A stretch of 6,335 nt of DNA from Candidatus Helarchaeota ASGARD archaeon Hel_GB_B (GCA_005191425.1 SUPR01000154.1:1-6335); one strand, 5' to 3'; positions 1 to 6,335 are shown, counted from the first letter of the stretch. Numbers and translations are program-made. Notes: generated by a model not told the origin, from the letters alone.

Positions 1-1
1 C

Positions 2-175
2 ATTCTCAAAAAAATGGTCAATTTTCGTGGTAAAAGGTCTGTATCTGCTTGGAATTTAGTTTTATATTTTCATTTTAAAATTCGCCAGTTTCCTGATCTG
101 GTCGAAGATGTAGTGAACGGGATGAAAATATGTCCGATTATTGCAAGGAGGTCTGAAAATCTATTCTGGAGGTGA
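2..175 (+). CDS. Possible 3' end of an upstream gene (partial, 57 aa, product unknown)
   Basis: Frame +2 is open from the window edge to TGA at 173-175: ILKKMVNFRGKRSVSAWNLVLYFHFKIRQFPDLVEDVVNGMKICPIIARRSENLFWR*. The segment is visibly more GC-rich than the DNA at 200-385, and the other five frames hit stops. Family not recognised. Confidence 0.45.
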   Translation: MLKKMVNFRGKRSVSAWNLVLYFHFKIRQFPDLVEDVVNGMKICPIIARRSENLFWR

Positions 176-176
176 T
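168..176 (+). promoter_or_regulatory. Shine-Dalgarno-like GGAGGTGAT overlapping the TGA stop of the partial ORF
   Basis: Exact GGAGGTGAT at 168-176, matching the archaeal-type consensus. The GTG 5 nt downstream (182) opens only a 4-codon ORF, so function is uncertain. Confidence 0.3.
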
Positions 177-344
177 TAAAAGTGGTGAGAAATTAAATTC
201 AGAAATTATTTATGTAAAAAATTCCACTTAATGAAAGCAACGATAAATAAAAACTCAAAAAATTTAATTTTCATAAAACATTCTATTGAAATTAGAGTTT
301 TTTCATATGATTCATATTGGGAAATTTTTTGTAATATGAAATTA

Positions 345-1113: not shown

Positions 1114-2025
1114 ATGAAAATATCATTAGTTGGGCTATCTGGCTGTGGAAAGACCTCAATCTATGCTACTACATTTGCTTTTAAAAAACCAGAAGATACT
1201 GAGAAATTTGCTCCAACAGTCATGTATGAAGTACGTAATCATCCATATTTGGGTTTGAATGTTTCGATATTTGATTTTGGGGGGCAAGAACAATATCGAG
1301 AGAGTTATTTGGAAAAGACAGAGGTATTTAAAGAGACAGATATATTAATTCCAATAATAGATCTTCATGATAAAGATAGTTTTCAAGAAGCATCTAATTA
1401 TTTTTCAAAAATAGTAAATGTATTTCAATCTTTTGAAAAAAAGCCTAGGATAGTTATTTTTTATCATAAATATGATTCAAAAAATTTTGAAAAAGAAGCG
1501 TTAGAAGTGAATTATCAAGAAGCCAAGAAGATAATAGGCGAAATTTTCAAAGATTGGGATTATAAGGAATATAAAACTTCAATATATGACCAGGAACAAC
1601 TTTCAATGATCTTTAGAGACTTATTAGTAGCAAATTATAAGGACCTCCAAAAACAAGTAGAAAATACACAAGATCTTCTTAAAAACATTAACGCTAAGAT
1701 TATCATTAGCGATATTAATGGAAATGTTATTGTCCATAATGTAAGTGGTATTTCAACTGGACTACAATTAAGAGCTGATCTAAGAGATTTTATTTCATCT
1801 TGTAATACTTTAAGGGAAAACTTTTTCAGGTCAGATTCAGTAAAATTTGCTGGATCTACAGAAGAATCCGAAAAAGAAATGAATATATATATATTCAAAT
1901 ATATCTTGAGTGTTTTAATTATGGGAGAAAACCTATCAAGCAAAGAGTTCCAAGATGAAATATCACAATTATTGAAAGATATGGAGTTATTTGCACAATT
2001 AGTTGTAAAAGCACATGAAGAATAA
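1114..2025 (+). CDS. Rag/Gtr1-like small GTPase with C-terminal roadblock/longin-like domain
   Basis: G1 GLSGCGKTS (aa 7-15); switch I DTEKFAPTVMYE with Thr35 (cf. RagA DTRRLGATIDVE, recalled); G3 DFGGQ (54-58); G4 HKYD (118-121), the His form typical of Rag rather than NKxD; G5 TSIYD (155-159), as in RagC TSIYD / RagA TSIWD. Aa ~176-303 show a helix-strand(IIISDINGNVI)-helix-strands-helix pattern like a roadblock fold. RBS present. Confidence 0.92.
   Translation: MKISLVGLSGCGKTSIYATTFAFKKPEDTEKFAPTVMYEVRNHPYLGLNVSIFDFGGQEQYRESYLEKTEVFKETDILIPIIDLHDKDSFQEASNYFSKIVNVFQSFEKKPRIVIFYHKYDSKNFEKEALEVNYQEAKKIIGEIFKDWDYKEYKTSIYDQEQLSMIFRDLLVANYKDLQKQVENTQDLLKNINAKIIISDINGNVIVHNVSGISTGLQLRADLRDFISSCNTLRENFFRSDSVKFAGSTEESEKEMNIYIFKYILSVLIMGENLSSKEFQDEISQLLKDMELFAQLVVKAHEE
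1639..2022 (+). other. Roadblock/longin-like C-terminal domain of the GTPase
   Basis: ~128 aa after G5, with a hydrophobic-D-x-N-G-x-V-I hairpin typical of roadblock/profilin-like folds. Position matches the C-terminal roadblock domain of eukaryotic Rags. Fold is inferred from pattern only. Confidence 0.6.
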
Positions 2026-2039
2026 ACCAAAATTAATAG

Positions 2040-3209
2040 TTGATTGGAATTATGCCAAAATTAATTAAATTATCTACTGAAAAGGTTGCAGTGGCAGGTT
2101 TGCCACATCAAGTTTCAGTAACATTTGATATGACACTATTAGAATCAAATACATCTGTTGATTTTGCAGGTATTAGATTAATTTCCAATCGTCCATGTAA
2201 AAAAGATATATTGATCTCAAAAATAGATATATTTAATGGAGGAATTTTGGAATCTGGCATATATTCGCGTAATGTTAATCTAAATATCAGTAGAAGAGTA
2301 GTTCCTACAGTTATTGAAAGAAATATTAGATATTTTTTAAGAGGAACTATGGTAATTGAACATGAGACAGGAAAAAGGGAAGAATTCTTTGATGACCATG
2401 ACTTGACCATTATTGCTGAAAAAGAGCCGGTTAGAAGTCCAAGACCAATCTTACTACAAATTAAAAATATTAAAATAAAATTAGATAAGGACATTTTTGA
2501 AAAAGGAGAAACAATAAAAATAAACTATGAAACTGAAAAAATCAAATTACTAAAATTTAAACTTATAAAAGAAGCAAATGTATATTGTCATTGTGCAGAT
2601 TATGCAAAATGTGCTCATATAAAGCAGAATCCGCCGATCACTCTACAAAATCTCGACTTACATAATCCACCATCTTCAGATATTGTATACTTCAATTTAC
2701 CAAATGATTTGGAACCATCACATAATTGGAAATGGATTGGAGCTAGTACATCTTATTTTGAAAATTCAATTGGCGATTCAGTTTCTTATAACCTGGTAAT
2801 CAATGGAACTACATTTAATAATGAAATAATTAGCTTGAATGCACCAATTATTATCGTTGAACCGACCAAAGAAGATCTTTTTATGAAAGAAAAATCTACC
2901 CAACAACCATTTAAAACGACATTTTCTCCAAAAAATATAGAATTACAGAGCTGTATAGTTTCAAATAACATTATTACTTTTAAATTTAAAAATAATTCAA
3001 ATCAAAAACTTGAAGGAATAACAATTTCTATAACCGGTATTCAAAAATCATTTTTTGAAACACCATCATGGATGATCGGAAGACGCGAATGGAATCCTGG
3101 CGAAATTATTGAAGTTTCATATAATAATCACACACCAGATATAGAAAGCTATCAGTTTATTATTGAAACTAACTCTGGAATAAAAGTTAAAAAAATAGAA
3201 AATATTTAA
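2040..3209 (+). CDS. Arrestin-fold protein (arrestin N + C domains; alpha-arrestin/Vps26/SpoOM-like) with Cys/His insertion and extra C-terminal beta-domain
   Basis: N-domain pattern ILESGIYSRNVNLNISRRVVPT...NIRYFLRG (cf. LxxGxYxFxFxFxLPxxLPPS...IxYxL). C-domain pattern IKIKLDKDIFEKGETIKI...YFNLPNDLEPS...VSYNLVI...LNAPIIIV. The track uses TTG 2040, but ATG 2052 (MPKLIK) is the more likely start. Begins 14-26 nt after the GTPase stop. Confidence 0.75.
   Translation: MIGIMPKLIKLSTEKVAVAGLPHQVSVTFDMTLLESNTSVDFAGIRLISNRPCKKDILISKIDIFNGGILESGIYSRNVNLNISRRVVPTVIERNIRYFLRGTMVIEHETGKREEFFDDHDLTIIAEKEPVRSPRPILLQIKNIKIKLDKDIFEKGETIKINYETEKIKLLKFKLIKEANVYCHCADYAKCAHIKQNPPITLQNLDLHNPPSSDIVYFNLPNDLEPSHNWKWIGASTSYFENSIGDSVSYNLVINGTTFNNEIISLNAPIIIVEPTKEDLFMKEKSTQQPFKTTFSPKNIELQSCIVSNNIITFKFKNNSNQKLEGITISITGIQKSFFETPSWMIGRREWNPGEIIEVSYNNHTPDIESYQFIIETNSGIKVKKIENI
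2925..3206 (+). other. Unnamed ~90-aa beta-rich domain (FFETxSW motif), copy 1
   Basis: aa ~296-389: FKFKNNSNQKLEGITISITGIQKSFFETPSWMIGRREWNPGEIIEVSY. Aligns with the N-terminal part of the CBS protein. Confidence 0.7.
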
Positions 3210-3219
3210 TGTAAAATTA

Positions 3220-3230
3220 TTTTCTTTTTT
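3220..3230 (+). terminator. Oligo-T archaeal-type terminator after the GTPase-arrestin gene pair
   Basis: TTTTCTTTTTT starting 11 nt after TAA 3207-3209. Confidence 0.5.
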
Positions 3231-3558
3231 ATATAAAATGAAAAAGATCATTAATTGAAAGTCAATATTTGCTGAATTTTTGTACTCTCTATTTTAAGTA
3301 GAAATCTTTTACCTTTTCACTTTTGAGATTACACTAAAAAGTTAGTAAAATTCGCTTATTTTTATTAAAAATTCTAAATTAAAGAATTATTTTAAAAAAT
3401 TTATTTTAGCCTAAAATGAGAGATTATTTATTAATATTTAATAAAATAATAAAAAATTTGTAAATTAATAATAAATTTGCCAGATTTTTATAATAAAATA
3501 TCTAAAAAGAATTTATAGAAACAATGTATTGGGTTAAATGATTAAAATTTTCTTATTA

Positions 3559-3570
3559 TTCATATAAAAT
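3559..3570 (+). promoter_or_regulatory. Candidate TATA-containing promoter element for the surface protein gene
   Basis: TTCATATAAAAT, identical to 1056-1067, ending 31 nt before ATG 3602. Confidence 0.35.
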
Positions 3571-3592
3571 GTATTCCAAAAACATATAAAAA

Positions 3593-4852
3593 GTGGAAAA
3601 AATGAAAAATTTAAAAAGATTTTCAATGATTACAATTTTATTAATATCTCTACTTAATTTCATGATTATACAAACAATATACGCAAATAATAATGATATT
3701 TCAATAAATACCATATCGACAAAGGGAATAAATCTAGAAACCCAAAAATATTGGCACAATGGTTCGAATATAGTAATTTCAGATTTATCTTTAGAATATT
3801 GGTTAGATGCAAATGTGGTTCAAGGAGAAGATGTACTTTATGAAAATATGTTTATAACATATAAAGATATGACATATACAAGAGTTGGACTTCAAATAAC
3901 TGTCACTTTTGATAAAGGGGGACTAGATGTTGCTAGAAAAACGGTCTTAAATTGGTCTAAAGCAAAATCCTCCGCTATATGTATGATCAGTGATTCTACT
4001 TATCCAAATTATAAAAGAATTGAGTTTTCATTTAATGGGTTTGATATTGTCAATGGAACAGCAAAAGACCTCAAAATAGAAAAAAACAGTAATGAAGAGA
4101 GTTGGAATCACAATGTCAAAAACATAATTAGCTCAATTCAATTTAGAAATACAAATTATTATATAAACAATGTAGAATTAAATACTATTGACTATTTATA
4201 TAATAACCAAGTTCTGAAAAAAAGCATCTTTGATTTTAATGTAACTTTAAACAGCACTATTGGAACAGAAACGCAGAAAAATTATATTCCAGTAATTCTT
4301 AAGTTTCGGATTACGCACAATATAACGTCTACAATTTTCAAGTATGGAATGGACATTGACTGGAGTAAATGTAAAGCATTTCCGACAACAATACCACTTA
4401 GTACAGGTGATGATTTTACATTACTATCAAATGATTTAATCACTGTATCAAACGGAAATTGGCAAATTGGACATTTTACAACCGATCCAGAGAATAGAAC
4501 TGCAATATTTACAAAAAATGGAAATGAATTAGGGCGAGAATATTTTACGACGCAATACCAAATCAAGGGAAGTCCAACAACCTATAATACAACTAGGATA
4601 TATATACAAAATGAGTCAGATCCAGGTGGTATCTATGAGCCGCCCTATGTGTCAAAAGTTTTTGTCTGTTTTGATGGCTTTAAGTATAATCAGAGTACAG
4701 GACTAATTTTTGACCCTATTATAGTTATTCCTTGTTCTTCATCAATTGGTCTGTTTTATTTGATTATTTTTATTATTATACTCGCAGGAATATCAGCGGT
4801 TCCAGTTATTTTCATCATGAAACGGAGATCTAAACCCAAAACAGCCTCATAA
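3593..4852 (+). CDS. Secreted, single-pass (type I) membrane-anchored surface glycoprotein, function unknown
   Basis: Likely start ATG 3602: MKNLKR (basic n-region), FSMITILLISLLNFMII (h-region), TIYA|N (SPase-like site). Ten N-x-S/T sequons (NGS, NWS, NGT, NVT, NST, NIT, NRT, NTT, NES, NQS). Beta-rich ectodomain, C-terminal TM helix IGLFYLIIFIIILAGISAVPVIFIM (4745-4819) and basic tail KRRSKPKTAS. Confidence 0.85.
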   Translation: MEKMKNLKRFSMITILLISLLNFMIIQTIYANNNDISINTISTKGINLETQKYWHNGSNIVISDLSLEYWLDANVVQGEDVLYENMFITYKDMTYTRVGLQITVTFDKGGLDVARKTVLNWSKAKSSAICMISDSTYPNYKRIEFSFNGFDIVNGTAKDLKIEKNSNEESWNHNVKNIISSIQFRNTNYYINNVELNTIDYLYNNQVLKKSIFDFNVTLNSTIGTETQKNYIPVILKFRITHNITSTIFKYGMDIDWSKCKAFPTTIPLSTGDDFTLLSNDLITVSNGNWQIGHFTTDPENRTAIFTKNGNELGREYFTTQYQIKGSPTTYNTTRIYIQNESDPGGIYEPPYVSKVFVCFDGFKYNQSTGLIFDPIIVIPCSSSIGLFYLIIFIIILAGISAVPVIFIMKRRSKPKTAS

Positions 4853-4906
4853 TTTTTTCAATATTTCAATTTTTTTAATATTTTTACCATTTTAATGTAG
4901 TTTTTT
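4853..4906 (+). terminator. Serial oligo-T tracts (terminator) after the surface protein gene
   Basis: T6 at 4853-4858 directly after the stop, T7 at 4870-4876, T5 at 4881-4885, T6 at 4901-4906. Confidence 0.55.
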
Positions 4907-4982
4907 AATTTTTAATCAATTTTATTAATCCCAATTTTAATAATCATTTAAGATCATTAATTCCATAACACCTTTTTGAAAT

Positions 4983-6335
4983 TTAAAAAGCTTTACTTAG
5001 GTCTAAATCAGGAGGAGTAGCCGTAGAAATATCCATATTTAAAATATCTGTATTTGAAATAATCCCTTCAATTTCATTTTCCGAATTTTCTTCAGTTATT
5101 ATAATATGTCTGATACCTTTAGTAATCATGATATGTATTGCTTTTTCAATAGTATCATTTTTACTTAAAGTAATTAATGGAAAATTCATAAGATCTTGGG
5201 CTTTTAATTCTTTAGGATTGGAATCTTGCTCAATTGCACGCCTTAATATATTACGTTCTGTTATTATCCCAATAGCTTTTCTATTTTTAGAAACTACAAC
5301 GCTACCTATTCTTTTTTCGTTCATAATATTAGCAATTTCAATTAAACTCGTTTCAACGTTGACCATAATAACATTTCTATTCATAATTTTTTCAATGGTC
5401 CTTTTGTTTAGATCGGCAATTTTAGAGTATTTTTCTTCTAAATCAGGACTTTTTAACGATTGTTTCAAATATACATTAATTAAATCATTTGTTCTGATTA
5501 TTCCGACTAATTTATCATCTTCTAGTACGGGCAATTTCTTAACACCTGTTTGCAAAATTAGCAAGGCTGCTTTTCGTATGTTATCGTTTTTATTCACGTA
5601 AATTAATGGTGTTGACATAATTTCTTTGCATTTAATTTCGTTAGGAGAAATATTTTGTTCATACATCATGGGGATGACTTTTTTTAGAATATCTCTATGA
5701 GTAATAATACCAATGGGTTTTTCATCTAATGTTATAATAATATAATCGAACCGATTTTTGTTCATTTCAATAACAGCATTTTTAATATTTTCAGAATAAG
5801 AAATAGTTAATGGTTTTTTGTCCATAAAATCTTTTGCGGTAATTATATCAAAAAATGATTCTTTTTTAGATAGATAATCTTTTGCAATAATATCTTTAGT
5901 TAACAGTTTAGTTCCATCGACACTATTTTCTACATTTAATTGAAATTTTTCATTAATATCAGTTATTGGATATTTAAAAATTAACTCTTCATTTGCAAAC
6001 CAAATATCGATAGTAGTTTCCCAACTTGAGGTCTCAAAGAACTCTTCGATTCTAGATATTTGGATCCTAATGTTTCTTAGATTTTTTGTTTGATTCTTTA
6101 AAATGATTTGTAATTTTTGGTTTCCTTCAATTGTTTCGATTGATTTAATAATAATAGGCTTTATAAATAAGTTTCTATCATCTCTTTTCTTATCTAAGTT
6201 GTTACCAACCGAGATTTCAAATTTTCTTGGCTCAGATGGAGGAGTTTGAGAAAGTTCTTTCAAAAATAAATAAGCTAATTTCTGGTTTTTTCTTGTTTCA
6301 GCACTTGTGATTGATTCTATTTTATTTAAATCTTC
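4983..6335 (-). CDS. Multi-domain protein with an FFETxSW beta-domain and four CBS domains (two Bateman modules); 5'-partial
   Basis: Four CBS repeats with motifs GIITHRD, GIIRTND, GIITERN and GIISNTD. The track starts at TTG 6263, but the frame stays open to the window edge (EDLNKIESITSAETRKNQKLAYLFLKELSQ...), so the true start is probably outside the window. Confidence 0.9.
   Translation of the reverse strand, partial: EDLNKIESITSAETRKNQKLAYLFLKELSQTPPSEPRKFEISVGNNLDKKRDDRNLFIKPIIIKSIETIEGNQKLQIILKNQTKNLRNIRIQISRIEEFFETSSWETTIDIWFANEELIFKYPITDINEKFQLNVENSVDGTKLLTKDIIAKDYLSKKESFFDIITAKDFMDKKPLTISYSENIKNAVIEMNKNRFDYIIITLDEKPIGIITHRDILKKVIPMMYEQNISPNEIKCKEIMSTPLIYVNKNDNIRKAALLILQTGVKKLPVLEDDKLVGIIRTNDLINVYLKQSLKSPDLEEKYSKIADLNKRTIEKIMNRNVIMVNVETSLIEIANIMNEKRIGSVVVSKNRKAIGIITERNILRRAIEQDSNPKELKAQDLMNFPLITLSKNDTIEKAIHIMITKGIRHIIITEENSENEIEGIISNTDILNMDISTATPPDLDLSKAF
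5034..5843 (-). other. Tandem CBS pairs (module 1 ~5469-5843, module 2 ~5034-5402)
   Basis: Module 1: AKDFMDKKPLTI...GIITHRDIL...KCKEIMSTPLIYV...LPVLEDDKLVGIIRTNDLI. Module 2: IEKIMNRNVIMV...GSVVV...GIITERNIL...AQDLMNFPLITL...GIRHIII...GIISNTDIL. Confidence 0.9.
5886..6158 (-). other. Unnamed ~90-aa beta-rich domain (FFETxSW motif), copy 2
   Basis: aa ~36-126 of the track ORF: IILKNQTKNLRNIRIQISRIEEFFETSSWETTIDIWFANEELIFKY. FFETSSW is encoded at 6021-6041. Confidence 0.7.

Follow-up and report, generated by a model that had tools for sequence, protein, structure and literature searches.

Closest described systems and the Helarchaeota locus

In eukaryotes, Rag/Gtr GTPases with HKxD and TSI(W/Y)D motifs form an A/C heterodimer that is linked to nutrient and energy sensing and is controlled by longin-domain GTPase-activating proteins (GAPs), namely GATOR1 with its NPRL2-NPRL3 pair for RagA/B and FLCN-FNIP for RagC/D. 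We analyzed a contig of Candidatus Helarchaeota archaeon Hel_GB_B in its full length of 6,335 bp (SUPR01000154.1, contig G000:C63, ~26% G+C; hereafter the window), which encodes a GTPase of this family, an arrestin-like protein and, on the opposite strand, a protein with CBS domains. A conserved Asgard neighborhood, which we term the Rag module, usually comprises five genes, and three of them are those in the window. A Rag-centered module with a longin regulator that carries CBS domains in this lineage, and with docking through a shared beta domain, is the best-supported reading of the locus, and we hold it with slightly better than even confidence.

The likeness to the eukaryotic system goes beyond the GTPase motifs. 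The partner longin domain of the module has NPRL2, FLCN and SMCR8 among its closest structural matches and carries an arginine-rich loop, one Asgard family possesses a catalytic-like longin paired with one that lacks this loop, and a nutrient or energy link, proposed here to run via CBS domains and redox enzymes, may be a further shared trait. Where eukaryotes use an A/C heterodimer, the Asgard module has a single Rag orthologue in most genomes, and it is devoid of TOR kinase, Ragulator and DEPDC5. Behind its longin domain come a helical linker, a beta sandwich of a new kind and CBS domains, and not a DENN or NPRL2 C-terminal domain. The longin domain shows no sequence-level similarity to the NPR2 and folliculin families, and its protein is accompanied by an arrestin-fold protein and iron-sulfur (Fe-S) flavoproteins.

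Other described systems share single features with the module. An Asgard operon reported by Liu et al. (preprint 10.1101/2020.10.19.343400) also joins a small GTPase with longin/roadblock regulators, being composed of an FLCN/DENN-like protein, a LAMTOR1-like protein and a Rab-like GTPase (explicitly not a Rag), whereas a Rag occupies this place in the module described here. The same study reported NPRL2-like longins fused to prokaryotic sensor domains and found most eukaryotic signature genes outside conserved neighborhoods. In the MglA-MglB system, the gene of a prokaryotic small GTPase likewise lies beside that of its roadblock/longin-superfamily regulator; however, MglA does not belong to the Rag family, MglB is a roadblock GAP without sensor domains, and arrestin, CBS and redox partners are missing. 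AMPK gamma and MJ1225 have four tandem CBS domains arranged as two Bateman modules, as does the protein in the window. Unlike AMPK gamma, the latter is fused to longin and beta domains, is best matched by archaeal stand-alone CBS proteins and is not accompanied by kinase subunits. The two-lobed beta sandwich of the Vps26/arrestin clan (VPS26A/B/C, beta-arrestins, TXNIP and the bacterial Spo0M) recurs in residues 3-280 of the arrestin-like protein, which differs from the clan in its extra C-terminal beta domain, in its invariant C53 and CxCx5C cysteines, and in lacking a PPxY motif, an Arrestin_C score above the cut-off and retromer partners.

Rag-like GTPases, longins and arrestin-domain proteins are already known from the literature as Asgard signature proteins. 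The publications searched contained no paper on the module or on the shared beta domain, and none that mentions FrhB along with Rag or longin for Asgard archaea. To this picture the window adds a direct CBS-longin fusion, a conserved CBS-longin adjacency, a loop-less longin paralogue and an invariant cysteine motif.

Gene order and its conservation

Four substantial genes were found in the window (Table 1). The three considered here lie where an initial annotation of the stretch had placed them, and its view of the source as a probable Asgard archaeon agrees with the labels of the nearest relatives, Candidatus Helarchaeota or Lokiarchaeota. The gap between the GTPase gene and the arrestin-like gene amounts to only 14-26 nt, depending on which of the two possible starts of the latter (2040 or 2052) is used, and co-transcription of both genes is therefore likely. 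As the same annotation had cautioned, the CBS gene forms a separate unit, convergent with the arrestin-like gene at a distance of 1.77 kb.

The arrangement was kept in every close relative examined (3/3): a Rag gene (303 aa) is followed by an arrestin-like gene (385-391 aa), and both are faced by a gene encoding longin, beta and four CBS domains (639-647 aa), itself preceded by a small CBS gene. The membrane-anchored protein gene between the arrestin-like and CBS genes is found at this place in the present genome only; it is absent from the relatives, where the spacing is 50-210 nt. The functional linkage of the three genes, proposed at the outset, was thus supported by their common order in close relatives and by linkage that outlasted rearrangements in several Asgard classes. 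Among 36 sampled genomes, with genes at most 150 nt apart counted as adjacent, Rag shared a locus with the arrestin-like gene bearing the beta domain (arrestin-beta) in 27 and with the longin-beta gene in 23, adjacency being observed for arrestin-beta in 20. A gene for an FrhB-like flavoprotein with the same domain (FrhB-beta) shared the Rag locus in 28, in 25 of them as an adjacent gene, and longin-beta was adjacent to a small CBS-pair gene in 19 of 23 loci; the sampled genomes are related, so that all these counts overstate independence and are to be read qualitatively. The variation of gene order and orientation from lineage to lineage speaks against a single arrangement having simply been inherited. 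The direct results of the analysis comprise gene order, domain content, folds, beta-domain homology, conserved linkage and a matching family distribution.

A RagA/Gtr1-like GTPase

The first gene product matched the Pfam family Gtr1_RagA (PF04670) over residues 2-204 with an E value of 4.9e-22 and 78.9 bits, well over the cut-off of 22, and its earlier description as a Rag-like GTPase was accurate. It contains the motifs GLSGCGKTS, DFGGQ, HKYD and TSIYD. The last two correspond to G4 and G5 elements of the Rag type (HKxD in place of NKxD for G4), as HKYD aligns with HKMD and TSIYD with TSIWD of human RagA, and both are invariant in 19 orthologues. RagA, Gtr1 and 8yl2 (an unnamed "GTP-binding protein") were the best solved relatives. 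A profile of the 19 orthologues matched RagA (1.6e-20) and Gtr1 (7e-20) ahead of RagC (~1e-11) and Gtr2 (5e-10), with Arf proteins behind at ~1e-7; public records name the orthologues "ADP-ribosylation factor-like protein". The best 120 of 394 protein-search matches were Asgard orthologues only.

The GTPase is under strong constraint, its C-terminal domain of 128 aa included, with orthologues being 52-90% identical across the class over both parts. In the Rag/Gtr family the C-terminal part is a roadblock domain that serves dimerization. The profile alignment to Gtr2 reaches residue 228, and residues 176-303 alone had eukaryotic Gtr1_RagA fragments as language-model neighbors (score 0.85), which is taken as a lead only. 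Comparison of this C-terminal domain with the roadblock proteins of the same genome by hhalign gave no signal (probability 0.2%). At E<=1e-60, a single Rag orthologue was found in most genomes, and the module contains no other Rag gene; these genomes do have more distant Rag-like paralogues, and a heterodimer partner among them is possible.

The longin domain of full-length orthologues

In the window the CBS gene runs past the contig edge, and ~190 N-terminal residues of its product, longin domain included, are missing from the assembly. A search of the same assembly for the missing 5' part revealed no continuation but only a decayed paralogue on contig C158 (12578-12961, minus strand, L007), which is 35% identical over 124 residues of the longin domain and interrupted by five in-frame stops. 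In the full-length orthologues P0013-P0015 from three relatives (639-647 aa), the longin domain occupies residues 25-190, and the structural tests were run on residues 1-345 of P0013, folded with an alignment of 28 sequences.

The resulting model (predicted local distance difference test, pLDDT, 79.7) showed a longin fold with the secondary-structure order bb-a-bbb-aa; in the protein, the linker, beta sandwich and CBS domains mentioned above come after it. The exhaustive structure search VIA returned a Z of 10.1 to the GATOR1 chain 8fw5_B (residues 6-143), taken as NPRL2 from its chain length and residue range, and likewise 10.1 to the Lokiarchaeal longin 8yqg_B, together with 10.0 to 6nzd_H, a chain of the FLCN-FNIP2-Rag-Ragulator complex. 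DENND1A (9.8) and BLOC-3 (9.6) came next, and the longins of these two with those of VAMP7, Sec22 and TRAPP spanned Z 8.5-9.8; many longin domains matched residues 25-190 at Z 9-10. Foldseek against Swiss-Prot models placed SMCR8 first (2e-4) and NPRL2 at 2e-3, and no other (non-GAP) longin family was present in its 30 rows. By its predicted fold, the CBS protein is a longin protein, probably of the FLCN/NPRL2/SMCR8 structural type, which would give it a closer connection with Rag regulation than the initial annotation had proposed. Proteins of this kind are rare: a longin-beta query retrieved only 80 representatives among 1.84 billion.

Within the longin domain, G39 (27/28), located before strand 2, is conserved, and so is the S-x-R-x-K-x-R-G loop that connects strand 4 to strand 5 and contains R99 (22/28), K101 (23/28) and R103 (21/28). 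Eukaryotic GAP longins and some Asgard longins are reported to share an arginine finger and, where strand 2 begins, a GP motif, and it has been asked whether Asgard Rag GTPases are the clients of the latter longins (PMC12290439). Furthermore, two adjacent longin-beta paralogues were encountered in family f16 (L051 12811-14906, L052, L053, L064, L065), the second of which keeps the conserved glycine and has no S-x-R-x-K-x-R-G loop. By analogy, this pair may be compared to the catalytic and non-catalytic partners of NPRL2-NPRL3 and FLCN-FNIP.

The arrestin/Vps26-fold protein

The product of the second gene gave a weak Pfam match to Arrestin_C (E 0.0039, 17.9 bits), under the cut-off of 27.7. Its AlphaFold model (pLDDT 74.5) consists of three beta-sandwich units and was matched by Foldseek to VPS26C, beta-arrestin-1, VPS26A and TXNIP at E ~1e-10. 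VIA aligned ~245 residues within residues 3-280 to VPS26A/B/C, beta-arrestins and TXNIP at Z 12-14; for VPS26A, Z was 14.2 with 248 residues aligned and a root-mean-square deviation (rmsd) of 9.0, and for arrestin-2 it was 13.3 with 226 residues and an rmsd of 6.2. The high rmsd arises because the lobes stand at a different angle in the model. An arrestin-type two-lobed beta-sandwich fold is present in this predicted structure, and the earlier assignment of an arrestin-fold gene in tight tandem with the GTPase gene was sustained by model and spacing alike.

Although the orthologues from several Asgard classes are only ~30% identical overall, all 29 that were aligned retain four cysteines (C53, C183, C185 and C191). 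C53 lies in the N-lobe, whereas C183-x-C185-x5-C191 belongs to a C-lobe loop modelled with low confidence. Such conservation points to a Zn or Fe-S site that might bridge the two lobes.

A shared beta domain and its redox-enzyme carriers

The arrestin-like protein and the CBS protein have a beta-sandwich domain of ~95 aa in common (Table 1). The relationship, first put forward in the initial annotation, was recovered by pairwise BLASTP of the CBS protein against the arrestin-like C-terminus (E 0.004, with an FFETxSW motif). A hidden Markov model built from the longin-protein copies alone found the arrestin-like C-terminus at 1e-10 and the C-terminus of the FrhB-like protein at 2e-23. The N of KNxS and the F-E of FFET are invariant in alignment A4. 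Judged by these sequence comparisons, the beta domain is a true homologous module; it has no Pfam family and represents an Ig-like sandwich without a specific known relative. A likeness to RhoGDI/UNC119 (Foldseek 3e-4 to 1e-3) was considered and judged generic, since glycosidase Ig domains score equally.

The usual number of beta domains per genome is three, and exactly three were found in the genome under study: the two in the window and one at the C-terminus of an FrhB-like Fe-S flavoprotein with two [4Fe-4S] clusters and the domains FrhB_FdhB_N and FrhB_FdhB_C. In 400 Asgard genomes, a Rag orthologue was detected in 151 (E<=1e-60) and the beta domain in 179 (E<=1e-6); with related genomes among them, these numbers have qualitative weight only. 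Both occur in families f1-f3, f6, f7, f16, f20, f21 and f32, which include lineages labelled Freyarchaeota/Jordarchaeales, and both are absent from f5 (0/14, same class), f13 (0/31), f15, f18 and f19. Genomes G162-G164 (family f9) carry one beta domain each and no Rag orthologue at E<=1e-60. The FrhB-beta gene of the genome under study is located on contig C161 beside a CdhD-like fragment and not beside CBS genes; either the gene order there differs from that of the closest relatives or the assembly is broken at this point.

The flavoproteins are the foundation of the main rival explanation, according to which the beta domain builds a redox-enzyme complex around FrhB-like and GltD/NfnB-like Fe-S flavoproteins, with the Rag, longin and arrestin-fold proteins regulating its assembly, localization or activity rather than forming a nutrient-signaling switch with an adaptor downstream of it. 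The FrhB-beta gene is the one most tightly linked to Rag, being adjacent in 25/28 loci, and many loci have additional FrhB paralogues close by. Another redox enzyme, a GltD/NfnB-like flavoprotein of 577 aa with Fer4_20 and Pyr_redox_2 domains (L064 8741-10474, L065 8691-10424), ends in the beta domain in family f16, in the arrestin-like protein's stead, and the four invariant cysteines of the latter could bind a metal or an Fe-S cluster. However, the longin domain resembles GTPase regulators, FrhB-beta is situated 4 kb from Rag in the closest relatives and on another contig in this genome, and a role in enzyme maturation is not known for GTPases of the Rag family, for longin domains or for arrestin folds. 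We consider an assembly role of this kind unlikely.

CBS domains and the comparison with AMPK

The presence of four CBS domains, claimed earlier, was evident from four separate Pfam stretches (Table 1). The best solved relatives of this part at E<=1e-5 were archaeal and bacterial CBS proteins (MJ1225, ST2348, AcuB), with no AMPK-gamma match among them. The four-CBS family of the AMPK gamma and MJ1225 type binds adenosine nucleotides. Longin-beta is fused to four CBS domains in five sampled orthologues and in the truncated copy of the window; in a sister family longin-beta and CBS are split into two genes, and elsewhere a separate small CBS gene is found. The direct CBS-longin fusion is specific to the lineage of the window, and the CBS link itself is older than the fusion.

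In the initial annotation these domains had been placed in a circuit in which an AMPK-gamma-like adenylate sensor would act through the Rag on a membrane-protein adaptor of the alpha-arrestin type, analogous or ancestral to the control of alpha-arrestins by AMPK/Snf1. Four tandem CBS domains, an arrestin-clan fold with TXNIP among its matches and the conserved linkage are all compatible with such a circuit. However, no kinase domain was found among the proteins of the window, the CBS part is nearest to generic archaeal CBS proteins, and in genomes beyond this order one small Bateman protein serves as the CBS partner, not a protein with four CBS domains. On the arrestin side, VPS26 proteins score at least as high as arrestins and the 389-aa sequence contains no PPxY motif of the kind with which alpha-arrestins recruit Rsp5/NEDD4-type ligases, its sole PP occurring in NPPSSD; no conserved membrane-protein neighbor was seen, the membrane-anchored protein of the window being absent from the relatives. 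The link between the CBS gene and the GTPase-arrestin pair stands as a conserved linkage, whereas the AMPK-like route is not supported and the connection would run through the longin regulator; we regard the circuit in its original form as improbable.

Proposed organization of the Rag module

The module may be built around the single RagA/Gtr1-like GTPase as a switch, with the arrestin/Vps26-fold protein, probably co-transcribed with it, as an effector or adaptor. The product of the convergent gene, comprising longin domain, helical linker, beta sandwich and, in this lineage, the four fused CBS domains, would be the regulator of the switch. Its longin domain would most likely set the nucleotide state of Rag, with activity as a GAP being likelier than that of a guanine nucleotide exchange factor and depending on the S-x-R-x-K-x-R-G loop, and the Bateman modules would tune this regulation upon an adenosine-containing ligand. 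The beta domain may represent a common docking module that assembles the arrestin-like, longin and FrhB-like proteins on one hub. Through such a hub, redox and energy status would be relayed to the GTPase, with the CBS domains and perhaps the flavoproteins as input.

Several points weigh against this organization. In the structure search, less than 1 Z unit separates the GAP longins from others without this role (DENND1A, BLOC-3, VAMP7), and sequence methods provide no link from the longin domain to either NPR2 or folliculin: Pfam searches with single proteins and with 28 family members gave no NPR2, folliculin or DENN match, the longin profile matched none of the PDB chains at E<=10, and a PF06218 search of the window's own genome was negative, as were its controls. 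The conserved glycine is part of a G-H-x-P motif, with H after G39 and P at +3, and not of a G-P motif, and R99 and R103 are candidate counterparts of the arginines R78 of NPRL2 and R164 of FLCN. CBS domains bind many ligands. Since no arrestin-beta was found near Rag in f16, the arrestin-like protein is not an output that the module always requires. Family f6, the largest, shows no linkage of its longin gene with Rag and often has 1-6 kb between Rag and the arrestin gene, and the relatedness of the sampled genomes reduces the weight of the locus counts. Physical contacts, GAP activity, CBS ligand and output are what we infer; a complex prediction for Rag (A3) and longin-beta (A2), with a score of 0.01 against a mark of 0.32, is evidence neither for nor against binding.

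A coincidental neighborhood, in which the CBS gene would be an independent generic regulator kept close by the shared ancestry of close genomes, is very improbable and already hard to hold: CBS proteins are very common in archaea, the transcription unit is separate and convergent, and 1.8 kb with an unrelated gene intervene in this genome, yet the CBS and arrestin-like proteins have a rare domain in common, the CBS-longin adjacency is kept across classes and differing gene orders, and the families with the beta domain are nearly identical to those with the Rag orthologue.

Other features of the window and of related loci

The membrane-anchored protein had no Pfam, NCBIfam or PADLOC match. An anti-phage defense reading of the module was dropped, as no PADLOC match was obtained for any module protein. 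The stretch upstream of the GTPase gene (1-1113) is very AT-rich (19-26% G+C), and its sole open reading frame (ORF, 386-646) encodes 86 aa that possibly span the membrane. Rfam and tRNA scans of the window gave no match, and a look-up of RNA runs containing the window listed none.

In f6, the Rag gene and the arrestin-like gene are separated by a conserved HAD-type hydrolase gene of opposite orientation. In a Lokiarchaeota relative (L005 512-4199), a Ras/Roc-TIR protein of 604 aa and a second GTPase with faint longin matches are encoded just upstream of the module.

Table 1. Features of the window and of related loci
Feature	Position	Strand	Remarks
Rag/Gtr-family GTPase gene	1114-2025	+	303 aa
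GTPase, G domain	residues ~1-175		
GTPase, C-terminal domain	residues ~176-303		
Arrestin-like gene	2040-3209	+	389 aa, all-beta protein; conserved, probable true start ATG at 2052
Arrestin/Vps26-fold part	2040-2924	+	two predicted beta-sandwich lobes; AlphaFold model, Foldseek, VIA
Shared beta-sandwich domain, arrestin-like C-terminus	2925-3209	+	~95 aa; profile A4, E 2.1e-29
Membrane-anchored protein gene	3593-4852	+	419 aa; signal peptide and C-terminal membrane anchor
CBS protein gene	4983-6335	-	5'-open ORF, 5' end beyond contig edge
Four CBS domains, two Bateman modules	4983-5870	-	Pfam CBS, 4 stretches, E 7.5e-48
Shared beta domain in truncated CBS protein	5865-6167	-	profile A4, E 3.3e-32
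Helical linker of CBS protein	6168-6335	-	gene continues past contig end
FrhB-beta gene of the same genome	G000:C161:1479-2942 (L062)	-	beta-domain match
HAD-type hydrolases of family f6	L034 5105-5827; L035 10206-10916; L036 7158-7862; L041 5068-5775; L045 7619-8335; L046 7338-8054		

Significance for Asgard archaea

Rag-like, longin and arrestin-fold proteins are numerous in Asgard archaea, and published surveys emphasize that their genes are seldom found in conserved neighborhoods. The module names one Rag together with its likely partners, a CBS-bearing longin regulator, an arrestin/Vps26-fold protein and a redox enzyme, all with one rare domain proposed to serve docking. The fusion of CBS and longin domains is the clearest hint that the input of the regulator might be a small-molecule energy signal. 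With four or five defined proteins, it becomes a testable question whether Rag-longin regulation and its link to nutrients or energy existed before eukaryotes.

The Asgard module and the Rag nutrient switch of eukaryotes may be related. We tentatively go one step further and propose, as a possibility that is for now more doubtful than probable, an archaeal forerunner of the Rag-GATOR1/FLCN hub, in which a longin GAP fused to a Bateman adenylate sensor would dock via the beta domain with Fe-S flavoproteins and a cysteine-cluster arrestin-fold adaptor on a single Rag. If this is true, the use of Rag GTPases to sense energy and redox state would be older than TOR and lysosomes.

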